From the NCBI RefSeq assembly GCF_964355755.1, contig NC_092676.1:8471888-8535887 (forward strand): a DNA stretch of 64,000 nucleotides, given 5' to 3'. The notes beneath the pieces are model-generated. The model was not told the DNA's origin and did no database searches. It was given only the letters and a program-made list of their open reading frames with translations. Shown here piece by piece: positions 3,128 through 57,680 of this stretch; the stretch's first letter is position 1, and each line of letters starts with the position of its first letter. The position numbers and the translations under genes are program-made. The stretch is from Antedon mediterranea (lineage: Eukaryota > Animalia > Echinodermata).

Positions 3128-3259
3128 GATCCTTACAAGTCTGTGGCATCAAATCTACACACTGCAAAGAAGATTCTAAGACAACAGCAACAGCAGCAAC
3201 AACAACTGCAGCAGCAAGCATCGGCAAACGAGGTAAAGAAGGCAGACCCTGAATCACAG
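3128..3259 (+). CDS. PHF21A: PHF21A-like internal exon (DPYKSVASNLHTAKKILR-polyQ-...KADPESQ); upstream exons not identified in window
   Basis: Pyrimidine tract + TAG acceptor at 3125-3127, GTAAAG donor at 3260; 132 nt, phase 0/0; open frame joins the next exon. Confidence 0.85.
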
Positions 3260-3472: not shown

Positions 3473-3616
3473 AAGGTTGACTTCATGGCTGCCCTCGATT
3501 TGATAACTCCTGGAATGGCAGAAAAACTCCAAAGAAAACGTTCCGAAAGGAAGAGACGCACCACTGCGAACCCACAGTTTAGCAACTATGCCAAATATGA
3601 ACAAGTGGCCAATTTG
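3473..3616 (+). CDS. PHF21A: PHF21A-like exon (KVDFMAALDLITPGMAEKLQRKRSERKRRTTANPQFSNYAKYEQVANL)
   Basis: TTTTTTAG acceptor, TTG|GTATGG donor at 3617; peptide resembles the conserved PHF21A 'FM..LGLVT...RKRRTTANP' block; phase 0/0. Confidence 0.9.
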
Positions 3617-4501: not shown

Positions 4502-4559
4502 CGCCGCAAATCTGAAGGATCGGTAGAGAATGGCATGCCTGCAGACAAGAGACGACGTG
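4502..4559 (+). CDS. PHF21A: PHF21A-like exon ending in first half of AT-hook (RRKSEGSVENGMPADKRRR-G)
   Basis: ATAG acceptor at 4498-4501, strong G|GTAAGT donor at 4560; 58 nt, phase 0/1. Confidence 0.9.
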
Positions 4560-5288
4560 GTAAGTGTTGTGTTGACAATAACAAGCAAGGCATATCTGTT
4601 TACGTATGCCTTGCTATTTTTATTTACACTAATGAAGATTTAGTTGCTTTTTGTTTTGTTTGTTTCATTAGTGTGAATGCAACATATCTGAGTGTTTATA
4701 AATATACAGAACATAATTCAATTTTTGTTTGAAAGTTTAAAATGAATATAAAAATAGTCAAAGACACTAGTTAAAGCTTGATCAGAGTGGCTTAACGGCT
4801 GTGAGTACTCGCTGGCTAAACCCAGCTTATGGGGGCCCCTGAGTAGTACCAAGAGGAAAAAACAGGCATTAAAATATGTCGAAAAAGCTAAAAACACTCA
4901 AGGCCTCCAGTGTTGGAGAGCCACTTGGGGTTTCTAAACCAGGAGCCTCGGGCATCTGCGTTACGCCACTACTTGATCATTTTAATGCACTACAGGCTGT
5001 TTCATGAGGAGCACCTCAATCTCAGGTGCTTGGCTCTGAATGAATATATAATAAATTTATTAGGCCTGAACAAATTATTGAGGATCGTTCAGTGGTTAAC
5101 TGGGTAACATAGCATCTGGCTATACCTCTAAACCAAAAATTTGAGTGGGGTAGGCTTGGCTTTGAGGCGAAATGAAGATTCTCAGCAATAGGAACCTACC
5201 ATAAAACACTCAGAAATGTTTGTTCTCATTTACTTACTCTTTAATAGTTATCCCAAATATCAATTATGCTTAAGGTGTGTATGTCTAA

Positions 5289-5425
5289 AGCTCTGTCTAC
5301 ACTATAAAACTAGTTTGACAAAAAAAGTGTGATGTGCCCAAATATAGCAATGACAATATCATCATGTCCATATATGGGCACATCACATTTTTTGTCACAT
5401 AAAGTTTTATAGTGTAGATAGAGCT
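5289..5425. mobile_element. MITE family A copy
   Basis: AGCTCTGTCTACACTATAAAAC...GTTTTATAGTGTAGATAGAGCT. Confidence 0.85.
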
Positions 5426-5779
5426 GTATGTAATTTTGCCTACTGTTGCCAAGGACCTGGTTCTGATTCTAGTTTACATGAAATACTAAGATTGTTGTAA
5501 TTGACATTTGTCCTAATATTTTAATAGTAGGCCTACTTTTTTTATTTGCTATTTCAAACCTTATACCATTTATTGACATGTTTTTAAACTATTGTAGATT
5601 TAGTATTTGTAAGGAGTTTTAAACTAACTAACACAAACAATAATGTTTCTATTTTTATCAAACAGTTATTATTATTTTTTTTTCAATTTGTATTTTTAAA
5701 ATGAAATGAAACAACTTTTAATATTTTCCATTTCTAACACTGTTTTTAAGGTGTATTTGTATGTTATTTATATGTATTA

Positions 5780-5929
5780 CAGTCAACTCTCTCAATAACA
5801 GACTTTTCTTGAGGTCCAAAAGGTCCCAAATTCATTTTAACCATTTCAAACGCATTCCAAATTGCAGAGACTTTCCAGAAAACCAGACATGTTAAACCAG
5901 CCCAAAGGAGTTTGGTATTGAGAGAGTTG
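5780..5929. mobile_element. Tc1/mariner-pogo type MITE (TA|CAGTCAACTCTCTCAATA...TATTGAGAGAGTTG|TA)
   Basis: Inverted termini and TA flanks; related degenerate copy near 47270-47440. Confidence 0.7.
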
Positions 5930-5949
5930 TATATTTATTATTTGTATAA

Positions 5950-6197
5950 CTATTTAGCTTGTTTAGTTGTTTGGTTACAAACTGTTTAGTTTGTTTATAA
6001 AAGAGGTTGTTTATTGTTTGTTTAGAGATATTTATTTATTGTTTTAAGAGGTTGTTTTAATTTTTTTACAGAGGTAGTTTTAGTTTGTTTACAGAGGTTG
6101 TTTATTGTTTGTTTACAGAGTTTTTTTTAGTTTGTTTTTACAGAGGTCGTTTAGTTTGTTTACACAGGTTGTTTAGTTTGTTTACACAGGTTGTTTT
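5950..6197. repeat. Degenerate GT-rich minisatellite (TTTAGTTTGTTTACAGAGGTTG-like)
   Basis: Roughly ten imperfect units, ~200 bp upstream of the 6389 acceptor. Confidence 0.8.
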
Positions 6198-6388
6198 TTA
6201 AAATAATAAGCACAACTACTTTCTTGTCAAGATTTAGTGTTTATTTCTGGTAGTTGATTTAGACTCTGCGGTTGTTTGCATCAAGATTTTTCCAGTTGGA
6301 CTTTATTAACCAGTGTTCAAGGGTTCCTTAACAACAATCTTTACTGCTTAATCATGGATTAATATGGCCTTGATTTTATCTTTGGCAG

Positions 6389-7311
6389 GGATGTGTTGGA
6401 AAATGGCTAGGCCTAGATATATTCTTCCTAAACCTTGCTCCATTAGCCTGTTACCCAAGGAAACTTCACTAGTGTCACAAGTCATTGTCAATGAAGAATT
6501 TGTAGGCATAGGCCCAACACAGTCATCTTTACTTGATTATTTTAACGGTGAATTTGATTCTAGTTACAAAATCGCTCAAGGGTTTCTACAGGAAGCAAAG
6601 TCAGAGTGCACAAGAGCGTCAATCGTACCACGAGTAAAACGTAAGAGAAAGGTAGCAATGACTGCACCTATTTCTAAGAACAGGAAACCGGATGTTCCGA
6701 AAGTTCGTAAAAGAAAGCCGATTATGATTGGACCTCCTTTGAAAACTGAGATTCTACCATATTCTCAAGATGGAAAACAAAAGAAATGTTTGGTTGATTC
6801 TTCGTCCAAAATGTATGCTTTGCAGAGTCATACAGAAGGTAGGCAACTGCGTTTGATAGCCCCAAAAGACAAACACCACTGTCCAAATATGGACATCCCT
6901 CCTTGTATATCTGAAGAACCACAGAGTCCTCAGGATGGAAAGAAGATGCGTAGCTCATGGACCATCCAAGAGAAAGTCACAGCAGTGGAGAGCTTTCGAA
7001 ACGATGACGACATAGGAGCCATTCTTAAGAGGTATAACTGCAGCCGGACCAGCTTGATTCGTTGGAATCGAGCGTACGACACGCTTTTACAACATAACAA
7101 CTTAAATGCAGCGGCAAGACGGATGCCGAAGCCTGATGACCACGGTATGCATGTCTACCAACAGCTTACTAACCTATACAATAATGAAGAAGAAATACAC
7201 AATGTCCTCATAAAAACTGTAGCTGTTGAAGAAGCTAGCAAATTAAACCTTAAAAACTTTCGCCCTACTCAAGCCTGGATAAGGCAGTGGAAAAAGAAAT
7301 ATAGATTTTAA
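6389..7311 (+). CDS. Putative alternative terminal exon: basic NLS-like linker + pogo/CENP-B-type double HTH DNA-binding domain, no DDE domain
   Basis: Only long non-repetitive ORF in the window (6364-7311). TTTTATCTTTGGCAG|GG acceptor is phase 1 and in frame with the 4559 donor. C-terminus RSSWTIQEKVTAVE..RYNCSRTSLIRW (Psq/Brinker/CENP-B N-type HTH) and LIKTVAVEEASKLNLKNFRPTQAWIRQWKKKY (CENP-B/Tc5-type HTH, cf. FKASxGWLxRFKKRH). Confidence 0.8.
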
Positions 7312-8168
7312 TTTTACTTATTAAGAAAACCAGATTGATCAAGTGTGGACATGCCTTTATTTTTTTTTTTATAATATAGAAGTCCTTTGTTTTGTACATT
7401 GTTTTATGAAAAAAAAACACATTTTAATTAAACTGCATATCAAATAGTTATAATACTGCAGGTGTGAAGTACTGTAAATGGCCATGTAAATTAGAACGTG
7501 TCTGCACATTTTCAAATTGTTAAGACCACTGTAAAAAAAAGTATTTAAAGCTGCAAATACATTAAAGTGGACAAAATTGCACAATTATGGTATCATCGTG
7601 CACCTTAAGAGGTCTTAATCCAATTGTATACATTCAAAATTGACTTACTATAGCATATGTGATTAAAGTGATTACATCACTTGTTCCTTACACCACTTTG
7701 TATATAATTAAATTATTGATAAATTATATAATATTATGTGATACGTATTTAAATTAATATAAAAATGAAATGTTTATTTACAGTAAACATAGTATGTGTG
7801 TTTTCTCTAGTTGAGTTTAAGATTATTAAAAGGTGTTTATAAACATTTTGTGTTAAAATTTTACTTTTTAAAATGTGAACCCTTTCCACACAAGTGAAGT
7901 AATACAGGTAAAGAAATGATTAAAAATACTTATTAATTATTTGATTATTTACTCTCTCAATTAATCATGATCGCTTAATGATTTATTTTGTTATTTGGAG
8001 TATAATAAGAAATATAATGCTACACTAGTAAAAAAAAAAGTATAAGATAATTTATCAATATATATATATAAGTAAAAAAAATAGATATACTGTAGTACAA
8101 GTCATTCCAGCTATATTGGTATTTATGTAATATATTTATTATACCTACTATTTTTTTTTCTTTTGTAG

Positions 8169-8230
8169 GGCGACCACCAAAGAACCCCGACAGCAGACCT
8201 TCTACTCCTGACAATAGTACTAGACGAGAT
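8169..8230 (+). CDS. PHF21A: PHF21A-like exon completing the AT-hook (G-RPPKNPDSRPSTPDNSTRRD)
   Basis: Long T tract + GTAG acceptor, GTAAGT donor at 8231; 62 nt, phase 1/0; yields KRRRGRPPK. Confidence 0.9.
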
Positions 8231-9100
8231 GTAAGTAAAAATCATTGAATTCAGTTGCATTTAAAACGTTAGGGGTGAGAGGAAACAAAACAATATGTTA
8301 AATAATAAAATATAATTATTTTCCTTTGTTTAAAATTATTATTTTTTGTGCGTCTCCTAATAGTAGACTAAGAAAACAAATATGACACATCTAAACAAAA
8401 GTTATAGCACCCTCGTTAGTATAAAATAAAAACTTTTCAACAATCAAACTTTAATTTTCCACAATAGAAACGAACACAACAATTGTGCACAGATGGAACA
8501 TATATTTACTCTTTTTTGTTTGTAAAATTTGTTTTCAAGTACTAACTATTTTGTTTAAAGTAGATGTTGCTAATTCCTCTTAATATATATGTATATATTT
8601 TAAATTCCTAGCTTTTTTTAACCTACTTACCCATTTGAGTGCATGAAAGCTGAATGTACAATATGTATAAGATAATAAATAATATTGAATTACAAGTCAA
8701 GTTATAGAATAGAGAAAACCATAATAAAAGGAGACAAGAATTAAAACAGTATTTTATGTATAAATGGTGGGTTGAATATAAGATGAAAGGTGCCTAAACA
8801 AATACAGTATTCGGGTTCTTTACATTTGTAAACCATTGACTGCTTTTACATCATGCACGGATTTGGTCCAGCGTGAACGTTGCGTGTGCTTTCACATCGA
8901 GCACGAAATTCATTACCTGTTCTAGTGAGGTCATTCATGCTCACTGTTCATCGGTCACTAGGATTTCTAGAAACAAATGGCTTCTTGATCCATCACTCCG
9001 AAATCAGAGACAGAATCGGGAACAAATTCAAATCGTATGATTTTGGTGTGAACGATCCTATGCTTTAACACTGAACCCATTTTCCACAATATTTTTTTAG

Positions 9101-9126
9101 GGCACCCGACCGAATCTGGGCGCGAT
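9101..9126 (+). CDS. PHF21A: Putative mutually exclusive 26-nt microexon (G-HPTESGRD) replacing the AT-hook exon
   Basis: TTTTTTTAG acceptor, GAT|GTGAGA donor; same phases (1/0) and same terminal Arg-Asp codons as exon 8169-8230. Confidence 0.7.
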
Positions 9127-9376
9127 GTGAGAGCAGCTTAAAGCTAGAAATTCCAACTCCCCACATGTGCACAATGAATTAACATGACCTAACCTAGGTC
9201 TACAGTTGTTGCAACTGAATAACTCAGAACTACAGTACTGTAGGCTTACTCTATCATGAATTTCTCCCATAATCTGAGCATCCAAGAGTGCTATTTGTCG
9301 GTTAAAGTCAGGGGAGGGGTTTAAACGGTGACGCAATAACGGCTAAATGACCATGTGCATTGTTTTGTCCAAGCAG

Positions 9377-9520
9377 GGCCATGATGACTTGTGTGCAGTA
9401 TGTAAACACACTGGAGAGCTCCTCCTCTGTGATTGCTGTAGCCTCGTCTACCATCTCAGTTGTCTTCAGCCTCCACTTGCTATAATACCATCTGGATTCT
9501 GGATGTGTCCAAAATGCAAG
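9377..9520 (+). CDS. PHF21A: PHD finger exon (GHDDLCAVCKHTGELLLCDCCSLVYHLSCLQPPLAIIPSGFWMCPKCK)
   Basis: Complete C4HC3 PHD pattern of BHC80 type; CAG acceptor, AAG|GTATAT donor; 144 nt, phase 0/0. Confidence 0.95.
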
Positions 9521-10795
9521 GTATATATACACAGGTCTTGGTGTGTGTATGTTGTCTTTAGGGCTTTTGCACTTTAATTTGTTATGCAATGTATTTATTG
9601 TTCATTTGCTTGAGTATTGGCTATGATTCTTTATTTGCTTGAAATTGTTGTTTAATTTTGGTTTTGCAGACTTTCCTTCCTTGCTATTATGTTCTTACCC
9701 AGTAGCTTACATCATTATTTGTTTCCTAAATAAGAGATATAACATTCAAGCTGTGGAAACTAAACAATGTCTTAGGGCTTGTTTCTAATTCAAATGAATA
9801 ACTGGATTTAATACCGTAATTTAAAAAAATCATTTAGAAAACATGTTCCCTTTGTAAATTATCTTTCTTATAGTCACAGCAATTTTCTGCTACAAAACAT
9901 TCTCAAAAAAAAAAATTACAATAACAATTAGGCCAAGTAGAAAGTATAGTTATCAGATTTTAAAATGCCTTTGTAATTTTGTTGATTTGCTTTTTTTGCA
10001 TGTTTCCAAATTTCTGTACAACCTCTGCCCTTTTTGAATTTTCATTTCAGTGAAATAATTATTGTCTGCTGCGAAATATTCCCTGAAAGCAATCTTCTAT
10101 AACAATTAAGATATTTTATCTTCAGTTCAAAGAAGAAAAAATGGAATATTAAATTCTTAAAAAATAAACGTCAAGGCATTGTAATAATAATTTCGCAAGA
10201 TTTTGAATGTCATCAGATGTTTACGACGATACAGCACACAAACTAAAAATAAGTAGTACAAACGCAATTAAAAGAGTTTTTTCAAACTGATCGCGGCAGC
10301 CACAGTATTTCCGTCGGGAATTAGACCATAGTTTTTTCAAACTTTATCTTTACAGAACAATAGCTTTGAAAAAAACAATAACATTCTTCAACAATTTCTC
10401 AGAAGTGATTATTTTAAATAGTGTTTTATTTGTACTCACATTTACACATACTGTACATACAGTGAAGTAGCCACAAGAAATAAAGTGGTCCAGTTTTCAC
10501 AAGAAAAGGGAACAAACTCTGTTCAAGTCACTGGGTTGTCAAAGACCTCAGTTAAAAAGTTGTCATGTGAAACCTTACCTATACTGATGGCCCTGACATA
10601 TATACATATAAATATAAATAAATTCAGATCACCTAGGTAGAGTGCTCGTTAAAAAAAAAAATAAATAAAATAAAATAAAATGATACGTAAACACTACAAG
10701 CTTTTCGTATGGCAAACAAAGCTAGTCACACTCTTCAGGTGAATTTAGTCTTCTGTTGTTTTCTGAATATTGATCAGCTTTTCTCACCATACAAA

Positions 10796-10917
10796 TAGCT
10801 CGTAGTGAATAAATATGAAGTTGTATCTCATATAGAATTAAATAGATCAACATACGAGTAGCTCGTAGTGAATAAATATGAAGTCGTATCTCGTATAGAA
10901 TTAAATAGATCAACATA
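10796..10917. repeat. 63-bp tandem duplication
   Basis: TAGCTCGTAGTGAATAAATATGAAGT... at 10796 and 10859. Confidence 0.9.
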
Positions 10918-11240
10918 AATTACTTTTCTTTATTTCGATTCATCTTTTTACACTAATTTGTTTTCAGCTTTTTATTGATTTAGCATTATTTTTTTTAAAA
11001 ATCAACATTCCTCTAAACATCACACACTTTTCTTCATTAATTTGTCTGGAATGTTAGAGCATGCTGGAATACATCCTTAAGGACACTTCTATTTAGTGGA
11101 CACCTTCAAATTAAATGAATGACGGGCAATATTATACTGTATTTTAACACCTAACACCTATTCAGGGGACACTCCTTTTAATGATGCAAAGAGTGTCTAA
11201 CTTAATATAGTTTCTCTATAATAAAAAATGTCAATTCTAT

Positions 11241-11391
11241 CGACATCTTCAAACAGTTGCTGAAAACCCATCTCTTTTGCATAGCATACGAAATTGATAT
11301 TTTCTACCTATTTCGAGCCTTGTGGTCATAGCGCTTTAGAGAAAATTTATTTTAGTTAAACGCTAAACAAAAGATAATTATTATTATTATT
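11241..11391 (+). mobile_element. L2-type 3' end
   Basis: FKQLLKTHLF peptide, AGCGCTTTAGA..AAACGCTA, (TTA)n tail. Confidence 0.75.
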
Positions 11392-11914
11392 CTACTGTAT
11401 AGTGATTGGCATTACTACTGTACTTATTTTATTCTTACTGCAGATGTCTGTAATTTGTATTCAAGGACCATTTCATATTTAAATGTTTTGATTTGTTCAA
11501 TTATTTATGCCTTGGTTTAGAGCATGCTGGAATACATTGGTTGGCTTTCCTAATTTATATTCATATCCCTTGTTTTCCTTCATGTTTTAACTTCAGATTG
11601 TTATTACTGTTATAAATTGTATATTCATGGGATGTTGCATATCGTATGTTTCCAACAGCATGCTTCCTTCAGCAAACATTGCTTTTTGTATCAATAAAAA
11701 TGTAACAAATGAGCATGGACCTAAATAAGAACAATACTTGTACCTGAGTACACCTGATGCTAGCAGCCTGCTGGCGATATTTCTTTTGGTACATAATTTG
11801 GGGACCCCTCATGAAACGTCACAAAATAAACATGAATATTCATTAATCATATCCATACGGTGTGACGTAAGAATTGAGGTAACTACAATTCACCAATGCA
11901 AACGCTTCTGTTGA

Positions 11915-11989
11915 GGCGTCTGTGTAGTCGAATGGATTAGACTATGGACTTTACATGTCGATGTACGGGGTTCGAATCCCATGAGCAAC
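11915..11989 (+). pseudogene. Degenerate tRNA-like sequence / SINE head in PHF21A intron
   Basis: TAGTCGAATGG A box and GGTTCGAATCCC B box; stems do not pair well. Confidence 0.55.
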
Positions 11990-12330
11990 TTCTTTTTACT
12001 TTATAGTAAGGTTAGGTTTAGTTATATTTAGGAAGTAGTTTGGCTATCTTTCACATAGGGAGTCCCCAACTTATGTACGAAAAATAAAATCGCAGCCTGC
12101 TGAACTTTTAATAATAATTTTTGTTTTATTAATTTTGGATAAACTCTGAATGTTTTAAAATGTTTCAGAAAAAGTCTAGTTTGGCTTCTTTTTGTTTCTT
12201 TGTTTCCTGTTGCTGGCGTAGGTCGTTTATTGTAAAACTGTTTCACTGTAAGTTAAATATCAGGTTGCCTAAATGACGTTTGCCTTTAAAAAAAATTATT
12301 TTTGTTACTCTTTCATTTTCATATATGTAG

Positions 12331-12507
12331 GCAAAACATACAAATAGCCCAGTACAACCTTGGAACGGTCAACTCAAAGTTTCACAGAATCAACAGAAAG
12401 CGTCTAAAGAAGACGAGAAAAAGCGATTAATACGAAGATCGTCCGAACTAAAGAAAGAGAGAATTCTGTTGGAAACTAAAGCTAAGCAACTTAATGATGC
12501 AATCACT
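12331..12507 (+). CDS. PHF21A: Coiled-coil exon (AKHTNSPVQPWNGQLKV...KEDEKKRLIRRSSELKKERILLETKAKQLNDAIT)
   Basis: GTAG acceptor, GTAAGT donor at 12508; 177 nt, phase 0/0; resembles the PHF21A PWPG..[20 protein letters not shown] region. Confidence 0.92.
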
Positions 12508-13141: not shown

Positions 13142-13330
13142 CATCAACTTGAAGCCAAACGAGAGCTAAATGATTCATTCAAGAAAACGGAATCAACTAT
13201 TGAACAACTCAAAAGTTTTCTTTCACTTGTCAACTCAAGTCCATCTACGACAGACTCTAACCAGCCACCACCTTCACCTGCAACAACTGCTGCTCCACTT
13301 ACGCCCCCTATCGGAGCGCCGTCGTCATGA
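13142..13330 (+). CDS. PHF21A: Last coding exon (HQLEAKRELNDSFKKTESTIEQLKSFLSLV...P/S/T-rich tail, TGA)
   Basis: Pyrimidine tract + CAG acceptor at 13139-13141; in frame to TGA at 13328-13330. Confidence 0.9.
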   Translation, partial: HQLEAKRELNDSFKKTESTIEQLKSFLSLVNSSPSTTDSNQPPPSPATTAAPLTPPIGAPSS

Positions 13331-51856: not shown

Positions 51857-53289
51857 AAGGGAAGAGTACGCACATTACTTGTTGACATAGGTTTTGAAGT
51901 ATATTTCCCCAATAATACTTGATTTGATACATTGATCATAGAGGAAGCAAAGACGGCTTAGGTAAAGTAGTCGATTATAATGTTATGTAATATTGTGTAG
52001 AGAATATAATAGGCTACTTAACATTTGCAGTCATGTTAAGAGCCCCTTCAAATATAAGCTTCTGGCTCTGAAATGTGAAGAAGGTTACTTCTTAATATTA
52101 TAGTTATGCAAATAACTTCTCAGACACTTTTAGGGATATTTCTTCAAATATATCTGTGTTGATACACACTAGAGTTAAGCATGCACAGAACGTTGATTTT
52201 AATGTGACAGCCGACGTAAAAATTTGTGTTTAATATTATAAAGATAACTAGTGTACCTCAGGTGATGTAACTAATTTGATTAGTGATCGACAAGTGATAG
52301 AAATAACTTCTCATAACTTAAATTTGTTTGCTTAAAGTCAATATTGTTTAATAAGAAGTACTTAGGTGAAAAAAGGAGGCTTTATCAGAACAGTAATTTG
52401 TATTTATTCATTCATTTTACTCATTTTACTTTCGGAAACGGACATCCATAGTTACAAAATCAATTGCATAAATAAGTTTAAACAAAAAAGGCAGACAAAA
52501 AAACACCAGTATCAGATCATCTCAGGATCTCCATATTGTATGGCATGAATTCATTTAAGATTTTACGAAAAACATATAAATATAATAGCTTAAAAATTTG
52601 AAAAGACTAAAGCAAAATAAATTATAAAATATGTTATTATTTTTCTCTAACCATTGGTATTCTCCTAGCAGTTCTGAGTAAAACAAATTTTATTTCAATT
52701 AATGTGTAAATATGTATTTCTAAAATTAGAATTATTCTCAAAATTAGACAACAATATAATTTGAAATCTATTAATAATACCAAAAATAAATGTTTTAATT
52801 TGCAGCTTGTTTCATCAGGATTTTGAAATTAGTAGTTTGGCATTACAAAAGAAAACTGTATTTGTATTCTACTTGTCTTAAGATCAACTAATTAAAATAG
52901 AATTCAAGCAACTTATTGATTTAACCATGCTTCATTAGCTTTCTATGTCAAGATAACATAAAGAGCGAAGAGAGAGATGACGAACATTAATATCTTAACG
53001 AAAATACACCATACACAGGGGCTGGGAAACAAAGTGAAAAGTAAGTAAAAATTATGCATTATAAATTATTGACAGAAGTGACCTTCATTGTCTCTTTTTA
53101 AGACAATTACGCCATTTATTTTGTTTGTTTATAATAATAAATAAATAAAACAGCAGGGAAACTCAATCATTTTCCCACTTTGAATTCCTTCATGAAACAA
53201 TTTTTTGTTAAAGTGATGTACTTGATACCGTATTGTGAATATTTGTAATTTACACTTTATTATTTGCAAACAAACACATTTTTCACCAC

Positions 53290-54080
53290 CTCTTTCATGT
53301 TCTCATCTCTTTTTTATTTCTACCTTTTTCTCTTTATCAATTGTTCCTCTCTTTCACATTCTCATCTCTTTCTTATTACCATCTCTTTCACATTCCCATC
53401 TCTGTCACATTCCCATCTCTTTCTTATTACCATCTGTTTCACATTCCCATCTCTTTCACCTTCCCATCTTTTTCACATTCCCATCTCTTTCATATTCTCA
53501 TCTCTTTCACATTCCCATCTCTTTCACGTACCATCTCTTTCACATTCCCATCTCTTCCACATTCCCATCTCTTTCATATTCTCATCTCTTTCACATTCCC
53601 ATCTCTTCCACGTTTCCATCTCTTTTTGTTCCTACCTATTTCTCTCTTTCATATTCCCATCTCTTTCATGTTCCCATCTCTTTTACATTCCCATCTCTTT
53701 CACATCCAATCTCTTTCATATTCCCATCTCTTTCATGTTTCCATCTCTTTTTGTTCCTACCCCTTTCTTTTTTTTTTCTCATTGCCATATCTTTCATGTT
53801 CCCATCTCTTTCACATTCCCATCTCTTTCAAATACCATCTCTTTCATATTCCCATCTCTTCTACGATCCCATCTCTTTTTGTTCCTACGTCTTTCTCTTT
53901 ATCTTTTTCTCATTGCCATATCTTTCATGTTCCTATCTCTTTCATGTTCCTATCTCTTTCACGTTCCTATCTCTTTCATATTCCCATCTCTTTCACATTC
54001 CAATCCCATTTTTGTTCCTACCTCTTACTCTTTTTCTCTTTCCTCTCTTTCTCACTGCCAAATCTTTTTCACGTTCCTAT
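53290..54080. repeat. Pyrimidine-rich ~17-bp minisatellite (ATTCCCATCTCTTTCAC)
   Basis: Dozens of imperfect units; explains stop-free ORFs in all three + frames. Confidence 0.95.
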
Positions 54081-55379
54081 CTATTTAACGTTGTACCTTT
54101 TTAAAGTTTCTGTCTCTCATTATGCATTCACTAATTGTTCATCTCTACATAATTCTACAAATTTACTATTTTTTCAGAATCTTTTCATCATAGAATTATA
54201 TGTACCAAAAGTATTGATCCAAATTTTGTTATAATTTCTTGATTCCTAATATTAAATTGAATTTAATTGAAACGTGATGACGTAAATTTAATTTCTTAAT
54301 GTATGTATTATATGCATTATTATTTAATCAGAGTAGGGCTTTTCAATGATTGTCTACACACACCTAAGGCTTGAATGCTAGAATACTCGATGTAACCTAT
54401 GCACAGGGTAAATTAAGCGAAAAATATAACGCGTTGCCATTGATCAGTTAAGTAGAGTTTGATTGCAAAGATGTGAAGCACCGGCCCACAGGAAGCCTGT
54501 GGTTGCCTGCCCCAAGGAGGCCTCAAGATACACTTTAAGTATTTTACGTCTAAATTAAATCATGAAGAGTTGAATAAATAATGACGAATGGCTTGTACTA
54601 AGAAATGGTATTGATGATAATGGTATAGACATTTAAATGAAATCTCAAAAAGTGCAAAGAAATATATTATTATCTAAAGTACACTTGTAGAACCCCTTTA
54701 AAGGGGACACAGGGGAGTAGAGATTTTACTATATTTTAAATCTGTCTTATAATAAAAAATATATTGATACAATTTTAATTTCTCCTGAAAGATGACGATT
54801 TATCATCCCTAATTAGACACTCCCGTGAAACGGAAAAAAGGGATGATATACATATTCAGTGAACTAGGGGACTTTTGTTTGGTCCTAATGTGTCTCCTTC
54901 TGAGGTTCTACTGTTCATATATTTATTAATGTCAATTAATAATTACTAACAGTACGTCTTGAAATTAGACATTATTTAATTTGATATATAATTTCATCTT
55001 TACAATCTTCGTCAACTCGGCAATTACGGTACGGGATGCAAATAAATGGTTTGATGGTCAATAAACGAAATCTTATTATGGAGCTTAAGGCCACCTTCTG
55101 ATTGGATTAAATGATTATCAGAGAGCATGAACGTTATCTGGTAGCTGTTTCGCACTTGGATGAGATAGCGTGACAGGTTTACTAAAATGCATGATTTTTG
55201 TCTTAACCATTATTCAGTGTAAACTTTAATAACAAAGATATAATGAATGGATAAATGCAGTATAACCTCTATTAAAGGGACAACTTCAGGAACCAACAAA
55301 ATGTTCTCTTAATAGAGGACATTATCCCTCAATATGGGTTGGCCGTAGTGCTAAAACATGTATTTCTCTTTCTTATGAG

Positions 55380-55698: not shown

Positions 55699-56950
55699 CA
55701 GTTATGTGTCCTTTGAATAGGGGTGTCCTAAAAGACTACTATAAAAGGTTTAGAATTGTTTTATATAGTATATTTGTATTGATATTAGATAGGTACCACC
55801 ATTATTTATATATATTTCCTCCATGTTTCCTATGTTTAAAAAGTTATGAGTTATAAACAAAACAATTAAAAAAAAAATGATTTCTCTTTTATAAAAAGGC
55901 AATACATTGAAGAGTTTAATCAGACATAGTCAACTTTTTTTATATCTTTAAATATGGTAAATTTTGTTTTGTTTTTATCCAATTTTTTTTCGAAGTCAAT
56001 AAACATGTAATATTTTAATAATTATTAATTATTTTTTAAAGAGAGAGATTCATAGTCATCATAATAATATATGTTTAACTATATTGTACCTATCTTTAAA
56101 TAGCCACTTATGGTAAGTCAATATTGGTACTGATTATACTACTTATCTGTTAAATGTACTTAAGGATTACGTTTGTTAATAATAATAAACATTTTGTAGA
56201 CGTTATATCATTAGACAATTATCCCATCACAAATATGCGAGTTATTGATAAATTATTCGTGTCCTCATAAATAATTCATAACTATATCTACAAATAAGCA
56301 TAAATTATGTAAATTCTATAGTATTATTTATGGTAAATAAGGATCTTTTGAACTGAAAATGATATATTTCTGATAGATTCTTGTGTATGATTATATAAAC
56401 ATAACACCAAACCAATAATGATTGTTATTATCTCATAAATTGTCCACCTCTAGGTTAATTTAATTTATATAAAATTAATATTTGAATCTAAATGAAATAT
56501 TGAAATGTTAAACACAATATACATTCATAAAATCAAATTCAAATTTATATGTTATCTTTCAAACATCAAATCATCAAAATATTTTACAAGCTCGTTGATG
56601 AGGTCAAAGGTTAAACAGCCTTGATAGAATGTACAATCAATAATGAAACAAAGGGTGGCGCTTGTGTATGTGAACAAATTAAATGAGTTTATAAACCTGG
56701 AGAAGCTTAGTCATTCAAAATAAGATTGATTTTTTTTCTTTTACAATGGGGAATTATTTTCTTAGTGCAATTAACCGTGGTGAAATGTACTAGTCTTATT
56801 TTCACTTTTATCCATTCTACCATGAATCATACCTAGTAAAGATACTGAATCACCCCACTTATTAGGGTATGTATACAGCAGACACCCTATTAAGAGGACA
56901 CCTTTTGGACCCGACAAAGTGTCTCATAAATAGAGACAACTCTTTAATAG

Positions 56951-57680
56951 AGTTGGCTGTAGTGTTATAACATATTTTCCCCTTCCCCTTGTCTGTTTCA
57001 CGGGAAAGTGTTCCTTTATTGAGTGTGTCTCCTGCATAGGGGTTGGCTGTAGTGTTATAACATATTTTCCCCTTCCCCTTGTCTGTTTCACAGGAAAGTG
57101 TTCCTTTATTGAGTGTGTCTTCTGCATAGGGGTTGGCTGTAGTGTTATAACATATTTTCCCCTTCCCCTTGTCTGTTTCACGGGAAAGTGTTCCTTTATT
57201 GAGAGTGTCTCCTGCATAGGGGTTGGCTGTAGTGTTATAACATATTTTCCCCTTCTCCTTGTCTGTTTCACGGGAAAGTGTTCCTTTATTGAGGGTGTCT
57301 CCTGCATAGGGGTTGGCTGTAGTGTTATAACATATTTTCCCCTTCCCCTTGTCTGTTTCACGGGAAAGTGTTCCTTTATGGAGAGTGTCTCCTGCATAGG
57401 GGTTGGCTGTAGTGTTATAACATATTTTCCCCCTTCCCTTGTTTGTTTTTTGGGAAATTGTTCTATTAATGGGAGTGTCTCTTGCATAGGGGTTGGGTGT
57501 TATGTTATACACATATTTTCTCCCTTTCTCCTTTTTCGTTTAATGGGAAAGTGTTCTTTTAATGGTGGTGTTTCCTGAACAGTGGTGTGGCTATAGTTTT
57601 GACATATATTTCCTTTAATGGGGTGTCTCCTTAATAGGTGTTGGCTGTAGTGTTATAACATATATTTTTTCCCCTTCTCC
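56951..57680. repeat. 90-bp tandem array (~8 units, last ones degenerate) inside a family C MITE starting at 56876
   Basis: GTTGGCTGTAGTGTTATAACATATTTTCCCC recurring near 56951, 57041, 57131, 57221, 57311, 57401 and beyond. Confidence 0.95.

Follow-up and report, generated by a model that had tools for sequence, protein, structure and literature searches.

Host-transposase fusions formed by alternative splicing have at least 94 origins in tetrapods, with a bias toward DNA-binding domains, in the preprint by Cosby et al. (bioRxiv 10.1101/2020.05.07.082677). Alternative splicing also acts on PHF21A, which in mammals is a subunit of the LSD1-CoREST-HDAC complex and carries a PHD finger that reads unmethylated H3K4 (PMC11864812); complex membership and H3K4 reading are likewise indicated for Nematostella PHF21 (PMC9400249). 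In human PHF21A, the glycine codon of the AT-hook is described as divided between exon 13 and either a canonical or a neuronal exon 14 (PMC12234916). The neuronal exon is mutually exclusive and sits at the same phase-1 position in human and mouse (PMC11864812, PMC12234916), and according to the mammalian work it abolishes DNA binding by the AT-hook (PMC11864812). Here we describe a locus of the crinoid Antedon mediterranea, contained in a window of 64,000 nucleotides (nt) (contig NC_092676.1, positions 8,471,888 to 8,535,887, forward strand), which by sequence is a gene of the PHF21 family. We hold with moderate confidence that the intron splitting its AT-hook contains an in-frame exon of predicted pogo/CENP-B type, likely used as a minor alternative last exon, and that a 26-nt micro-exon proposed in the same region is probably unused.

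A first-pass annotation of the window had proposed that a single donor at 4559 chooses among three acceptors, yielding (a) a protein with AT-hook and PHD finger, (b) a PHD protein in which a micro-exon takes the place of the AT-hook, and (c) a protein ending in a helix-turn-helix (HTH) exon. Its coordinates and frames were all correct when checked against the sequence. The AT-hook is split by a phase-1 intron, with exon 4502-4559 ending in R-R-R plus one G before the GT at 4560, and the acceptors at 6389, 8169 and 9101 all read YAG followed by GG. With 62 and 26 nt, exons 8169-8230 and 9101-9126 each have a length of 2 mod 3 and lead in frame into the PHD exon 9377-9520; inclusion of neither or of both shifts the frame before the PHD exon. 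Joining of 4559 to 6389 opens 306 further codons, with a stop at 7309-7311. The features of this third path are as follows.

4502..4559, + strand: exon ending in K-R-R-R and the first base of the AT-hook glycine, with a phase-1 donor GT at 4560
6389..7311, + strand: likely alternative last exon (HTH exon) that continues the frame of the 4559 donor for 306 codons, with ATGs of its own at 6391 and 6403; RefSeq XP_071955617.1
6931..7308, + strand: predicted double HTH of the CENP-B/pogo-transposase DNA-binding type, with no DDE domain after it
7312..7930, + strand: putative 3' untranslated region of the HTH exon, with ATTAAA at 7427, 7561, 7662, 7707, 7825 and 7919 and no AATAAA

The frame at 6352-7311 runs for 319 codons from stop to stop, whereas 2000 base shuffles gave no frame of more than 174, and the next longest frame of the window outside tandem repeats has 114 codons. 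The longest frames in the window (up to 331 codons; 53226-54234 and 56862-57613) were merely 17-nt and 90-nt tandem repeats. When the HTH frame was used as a query, a single protein was returned at 100% identity: XP_071955617.1 of A. mediterranea, 591 residues, named "uncharacterized protein isoform X1". This protein is identical, letter for letter, to the upstream exons of the window followed by 6389-7311. The 4559-6389 fusion is thus annotated by RefSeq, as an NCBI gene model. The 6389 acceptor is preceded by 13 pyrimidines in 20 positions (11-17 at the annotated acceptors of the gene). The GC content of the HTH exon was 41%, and 38% at third codon positions, as against 45% and 37% in the host exons and 24-34% GC in the flanking introns. 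Between the acceptor and the HTH domain lies a linker of 180 residues (6391-6930) with several basic clusters and two I-x-P-K motifs, for which no homologue was found in any search run.

The HTH domain occupies the last 126 residues of the frame and is predicted, from sequence and model, to be transposase-derived; it stands on a separate exon, in frame with the host exons. A search of 1.84 billion representative proteins returned only seven others at E ≤0.001, with 26-37% identity. In six of the seven, HTH_Tnp_Tc5 scores above the Pfam cut-off, and a DDE domain is listed for none; the remaining one, a bacterial LysM protein (P0033), was discarded as a chance match. The best Atlas cluster (score 0.95, 195 of 256 features) has CENP-B_N in 71% and HTH_Tnp_Tc5 in 58% of its members, and pairs of CENP-B_N or BrkDBD with HTH_Tnp_Tc5 are described as the DNA-binding part of pogo transposases (PMC7386202). 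The predicted structure had a mean predicted local distance difference test score (pLDDT) of 82.6. Its best match in the PDB was the CENP-B(1-129)-DNA complex 1hlv (Foldseek E 1.4e-3; VIA Z 9.7, root-mean-square deviation 9.1, 119 residues aligned), followed by the Brinker domain (Z 7.3, deviation 2.9, 55 aligned), Z values that are only moderate for a helical model. Core HTH residues were retained, with nine invariant columns in the alignment.

The nearest relatives of the domain (P0028; P0031, Amphiura XP_072030184.1; P0029, Haliotis) are DDE-less and host-like, and in two of these three, repeated HTH units come after C2H2 zinc fingers. They suggest that invertebrates have an HTH module that is already domesticated. 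Several relatives (P0027, P0030, P0032, P0034) consist of little more than a double HTH, at 130-156 residues, and stand alone. No relative was detected among 264 stretches in metagenome contigs or among PDB sequences, blanks that carry little weight.

Five sequencing runs cover the region, none of them recorded as RNA; run X1 is spliced, and runs X2-X4 are DNA-like and derive from one sample. DNA contigs passed through the HTH exon unbranched in all three DNA runs. No second copy of the exon was found within the window, using a profile built from the exon's own matches that serves for the copy search only, being circular as a score. The frame stops directly after the second HTH, and the segment 7312-8168 (23.6% GC) contains no + strand frame of at least 50 codons. 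A comparison of 5430-6388 with 7312-8168 for terminal inverted repeats gave only short AT-rich matches of 12-13 in 14 positions. Because DDE domain, terminal repeats and branching of DNA contigs are all absent, the HTH exon is not a recent insertion; it is old and apparently single-copy. An active or autonomous pogo transposon was ruled out by the missing DDE domain and ends. Run X1 differed from the window at 2 of 805 HTH exon bases, with no gap and no stop, and at no more than 37 of 2393 non-coding bases, a comparison in which the sites are linked and the non-coding figure is an upper bound. The smaller number of differences in the exon is a weak hint of constraint.

The assignment of the host gene, also made in the first-pass annotation, was upheld by RefSeq isoform matches, the PHD hit and domain order. 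The N-terminal 290 residues of XP_071955617.1, used as a query, returned two further isoforms of the same locus, both named "PHD finger protein 21B-like": isoform X2 (XP_071955618.1, 474 residues), with AT-hook and PHD finger, and isoform X3 (XP_071955619.1, 426 residues), with the AT-hook kept and the PHD exon skipped. Exons in the window account exactly for the last 418 residues of isoform X1, 301 of X2 and 253 of X3; the coding sequence of the first 173 residues lies upstream of the window. Isoform X2 has the order of the PHF21 family: N-terminal zipper or helical hairpin, basic block, AT-hook, PHD finger and C-terminal zipper. Its predicted structure contains confident helices at residues 4-75 and 371-443, which correspond to the pair of zippers known from human PHF21A (PMC6805429). 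The PHD exon matched Pfam PHD (E 1.7e-9) and the PHF21A PHD chains 2yql and 2puy (E 4.8e-19 and 1.3e-17), and the crinoid protein aligned with named PHF21 proteins. The remaining exons of the gene in the window are listed below.

3128..3259, + strand: PHF21 coding exon common to all isoforms; matches the RefSeq proteins
3473..3616, + strand: PHF21 coding exon with the conserved basic helical block of the family; family alignment and RefSeq match
8169..8230, + strand: AT-hook exon of 62 nt that completes R-G-R-P; RefSeq X2 and X3, run X1 contigs
9377..9520, + strand: PHD-finger exon of 144 nt, phase 0-0, skipped in some transcripts; Pfam, RefSeq X2 versus X3, run X1
12331..12507, + strand: exon encoding the initial portion of the C-terminal helix and missing from the HTH isoform; RefSeq match, model
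13142..13330, + strand: last coding exon of the canonical isoforms; RefSeq match, with a run X1 contig starting at 13142

The evidence from run X1 consists of assembled contigs only, and contigs lose rare forms; their depth is not a basis for ranking isoforms. A 784-nt contig ran from the end of exon 4502-4559 into 8169, and a GT..AG joint linked 8230 to 9377. Loose ends following 8230 and 9520 matched the start of exon 12331; this joint and these loose ends rest on 29 letters, just below the threshold of 31. A second alignment of the run omitted the donor exon, and junctions were read there from the loose ends of contigs. The joining of 4559 to 8169 and the optional use of the PHD exon are thus shown, and option (a) corresponds to isoform X2 and to the spliced contigs. 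Of the junctions at issue in the annotation, 4559-8169 and 8230-9377 were seen, and none at 6389, 9101 or 9126 was among the one joint and six of seven loose ends shown. Because contigs lose rare forms, the run is silent on options (b) and (c). The HTH exon is covered in run X1 by contigs 6169-6775, 6758-7193 and 7401-7662. A T-rich tandem repeat with a 23/47-nt period (5985-6200) ends about 190 nt upstream of the HTH acceptor, and the contig that crosses the acceptor starts inside it. As regards option (c), then, the intact in-frame exon and the RefSeq model of 4559-6389 favor the proposal, and the failure to see the junction in run X1 does not.

A number of observations weigh against use of the HTH exon as an alternative last exon. 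The domain scored below the Pfam cut-offs (CENP-B_N, E 0.007, 16.4 versus 21.2 bits; HTH_Tnp_Tc5, E 0.044, 14.2 versus 22.2 bits), and its model, which was folded on an alignment of its own HTH matches, had a predicted template-modelling score of 0.44. No orthologue of the exon was found: the single match among 966 candidates of 537-2000 residues was the protein itself, and there was none among 351 candidates of 168-536 residues. These blank searches carry little weight, because a search with the PHF21 N terminus, which gave no named PHF21 from a sea urchin, sea star, other crinoid or vertebrate, likewise missed most echinoderm PHF21 proteins. Crinoid sampling comprises A. mediterranea only. 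Among the one joint and six of seven loose ends shown for run X1, none fell at 6389 (nor at 9101 or 9126), although rare forms may drop out, and contig 6169-6775 passes the 6389 acceptor unspliced. Run X1 also contains fragments of other introns, and therefore contig cover of the HTH exon is no proof of exon use. Both run X1 differences within the exon change a residue, at linker codons 89 and 142. Finally, with ATGs of its own at 6391 and 6403, the latter in an AAAATGG context, the frame could be a stand-alone gene.

On that last account, the HTH frame would be a nested single-exon gene starting at 6391 or 6403 and expressed by transcription from within the intron or from intron-retaining RNA, with the RefSeq fusion a rare or modelled join. 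The ATG directly after the acceptor, the strong context of the second ATG, the unspliced contig and the small stand-alone proteins among the relatives all fit such a gene, and PGBD3 itself is described as being produced both ways (PMC2268245). Against it, the reading frame set by the phase-1 donor continues exactly at the acceptor, RefSeq models the join, and no promoter or 5' end was shown. We consider a nested gene unlikely.

The frame might instead be an undecayed relic of a transposon or gene that is spliced as noise and has no selected function. Orthologous introns bear on this account. A scan with the PHF21 alignment gave 111 pattern matches, which resolved to 15 loci, and three of these (L005, L013 and L015) span the region from the AT-hook intron to the PHD exon. 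The phase-1 intron after R-R-R was kept in all three, with lengths of 381, 411 and 442 nt. The HTH exon was absent from all three introns, which contained no stop-free stretch of more than 75 codons and no HTH match. This absence, the blank orthologue searches, the two non-synonymous differences and the unseen 4559-6389 junction speak for a relic. Opposed to this, the 306 codons are intact even though neither a close copy nor a terminal repeat nor any DDE remnant is left, the core HTH residues are kept, and the exon shows fewer differences than adjacent non-coding DNA. A relic is in our judgment less probable again than a nested gene, and we continue to favor a likely minor alternative last exon.

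The remaining member of the proposed switch, the micro-exon, overlaps a repeat.

9101..9126, + strand: proposed micro-exon, probably a chance match, with its 3' part and donor in the right arm of the repeat
8839..9137, strand not assigned: element resembling a miniature inverted-repeat transposable element (MITE), with arms at 8839-8867 and 9109-9137 (21/29) and an internal copy at 8887-8902

The candidate has several features of an exon: 26 nt, 2 mod 3, 15 pyrimidines in 20 positions, a GTGAG donor and an R-D end like that of the AT-hook exon. Its mutual exclusion with the AT-hook exon follows from frame arithmetic alone. The arms of the repeat matched at 21 of 29 positions, whereas shuffles reached no more than 19 (2000 trials on nearby sequence) or 20 (200 trials over the window), and the internal copy matched the arm at 14 of 16. 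Because the arm covers 9109-9137, the donor of the micro-exon belongs to the repeat motif. In all three DNA runs, unique contigs end at 9000 and restart at 9164, and the bin 9028-9411 had about 12x the neighboring depth, at bin-level resolution. Eleven other frame-compatible look-alikes passed the same filter in 128 kb (both strands), and the chance of at least one in the 4.75-kb span is about 0.34. The micro-exon was absent from all three RefSeq isoforms and from all proteins compared; no run X1 piece was shown over 9101-9126, which is not informative for contigs. UGC close to the acceptor is the rule for neural micro-exons, and the nearest TGC upstream of the 9101 acceptor lies at -40. No counterpart was detected in L005 or L015, and L013 has one unrelated 17-nt candidate. 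Orthology to the mammalian neuronal exon was rejected, the human exon lying directly after exon 13 and the crinoid candidate after the AT-hook exon. By its sequence, the micro-exon is probably a chance match within a repeat, and option (b) finds no support. A separate short element with inverted ends has two copies, at 5289-5425 and 47-215; the former has DNA-run depth thousands of times the single-copy level, which indicates a very abundant MITE-like family.

The full three-way model, in which the donor picks the AT-hook exon, the HTH exon or a MITE-born micro-exon that is probably the neural counterpart of the mammalian exon, draws on the suitable length, phase, pyrimidines, donor and R-D end, on the mutually exclusive mammalian exon, on RefSeq isoforms of a nemertean with 5 and 52 extra residues at the same point and on the chance that a nerve-specific exon escaped annotation and one run, but the repeat overlap with its broken contigs, the chance rate, the missing isoform, the distant TGC, the lack of a counterpart and the position relative to the human exon leave it quite improbable. 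As a whole, then, the switch stands for the AT-hook form, is carried by RefSeq annotation for the HTH form and is unsupported for the micro-exon, and in the orthologous introns its phase-1 position is kept without an HTH exon or a micro-exon counterpart.

A second switch, overlooked in the first-pass annotation, was seen at the PHD exon, which is skipped by joining 8230 to 12331 (RefSeq isoform X3 and a 29-letter loose end in run X1). L005, which is brittle-star-like and matches Amphiura at 44 of 45 residues of one exon, contains an intact 144-nt PHD exon at 2492-2635, although both Amphiura RefSeq isoforms and three similar proteins lack the PHD finger. PHD skipping is likely common to crinoids and brittle stars, with exon loss in Amphiura as the alternative, and a PHD-less PHF21 is possibly conserved in echinoderms. 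Changes at the AT-hook were also observed in other animals. In L005, the exon after the split glycine (1628-1695) is without R-P and hence without an AT-hook, a loss also seen in the Amphiura proteins. RefSeq isoforms of the nemertean Lineus longissimus (P0005, P0006, P0007 and P0023) add 5 residues, 52 residues or both sets at the AT-hook glycine; the 5-residue insert resembles a hook-breaking micro-exon of 15 nt. P0015 has one additional alanine at this glycine, and the AT-hook exon of L013 (1462-1710) has a second G-R-P-R motif downstream of the first.

Under the favored reading, the 4559 donor would act in two ways. Joined to 8169, it completes the AT-hook, and the PHD exon is then kept or skipped. 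Joined to 6389, it would yield a transcript ending at one of the ATTAAA signals after 7311, an arrangement of exon trap and intronic polyadenylation by analogy with CSB-PGBD3. The predicted 591-residue fusion would keep the N-terminal helical hairpin and basic block, followed by the 180-residue linker with its basic clusters, and would exchange the AT-hook for a double HTH that may read a specific DNA sequence; PHD finger and C-terminal helix would be lost. The exon may have originated as an old piece of a pogo-family transposase, or as a copy of an already domesticated HTH module, captured as an exon trap after the split of crinoids and brittle stars, with loss of the catalytic domain and ends. 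The product would likely be a sequence-directed DNA-binding protein carrying only the partners of the PHF21 N terminus. Binding of BHC80 (PHF21A) to other complex members was reportedly mapped to its C-terminal region by Iwase in 2004. The first-pass annotation had suggested that the HTH form re-targets the complex. [quoted passage not shown] The fusion more likely acts apart from or against LSD1-CoREST than by re-aiming it.

A broader reading treats the AT-hook intron as an ancient socket at which lineages independently change the contact of PHF21 with DNA: by a neuronal micro-exon in mammals and inserted cassettes in a nemertean, by dropping the hook in brittle stars, and in crinoids by capturing a transposase domain, which would make a reader blind to sequence into a selected, sequence-specific factor directed to old pogo ends, where its N-terminal hairpin draws chromatin partners, with a MITE-born micro-exon perhaps adding a hookless state. 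We offer this as tentative and rather unlikely. If the junction is real and selected, it would represent a fusion of host and transposase, outside the vertebrates, that affects a core gene for a chromatin reader, in which the gene's own non-specific DNA-binding motif is replaced at the intron that mammals use for the neuronal AT-hook switch, and one splice point would have been re-used for different DNA-binding solutions. PHD skipping in the crinoid, and probably in a brittle star, suggests an echinoderm damping of PHF21 that mirrors the mammalian one, with the hook kept and the reader dropped. As the kind of event is known, the surprise is moderate.

The three-option architecture had been put forward as possibly new. 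A choice between hook and no hook has already been reported for PHF21A of human and mouse; the literature search yielded no paper describing a PHF21 fusion, nor one combining PHF21, CENP-B, transposase and isoform, most subscription journals and supplements lying outside it. A metazoan survey of transposon-derived factors yielded no passage on echinoderms, PHD or fusion (PMC10027918). Like the crinoid locus, the PHF21A-c/PHF21A-n switch uses the phase-1 intron in the AT-hook glycine codon, with alternative exons deciding on the hook (PMC11864812, PMC12234916). PHF21A-n is a validated neuronal micro-exon form that keeps the PHD finger, whereas the supported crinoid alternatives are the terminal HTH exon and PHD skipping.

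The crinoid PHF21 isoform is likely a host-transposase fusion of the CSB-PGBD3 kind, a known kind of event, already present as an unnamed RefSeq isoform. As described for CSB-PGBD3 (PMC2268245), a transposon-derived frame lies in an intron of a chromatin gene (intron 5 of ERCC6), its acceptor a few bases before the first ATG, and is in frame with the upstream exon as an alternative 3' terminal exon that removes the C-terminal domains of the host. CSB-PGBD3 differs in being a piggyBac element with a whole transposase, terminal repeats and a target duplication, and its fusion mRNA and protein were shown and are conserved over 43 million years (PMC2268245); the crinoid junction is annotated only, and its exon has just a pogo-type DNA-binding domain behind a 180-residue linker, with no ends. 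The tetrapod fusions of Cosby et al. (bioRxiv 10.1101/2020.05.07.082677) share with the crinoid a transposase DNA-binding domain on its own exon, which alternative splicing connects to a regulatory part of the host while the parental transcript persists; as set out there, the survey requires RNA support for every intron and purifying selection, whereas the crinoid case has RefSeq annotation. POGK and POGZ likewise carry the pogo-family double HTH but keep the DDE domain (PMC7386202). The N-terminal domain of CENP-B (1hlv) and the Brinker domain (2glo) resemble the modelled crinoid exon in having two HTH units on a basic linker, at just 16-27% identity, with crinoid DNA binding predicted. Unlike the other fusions, the crinoid case has a histone reader as its host, and it is this reader's own DNA-binding motif that would be replaced.

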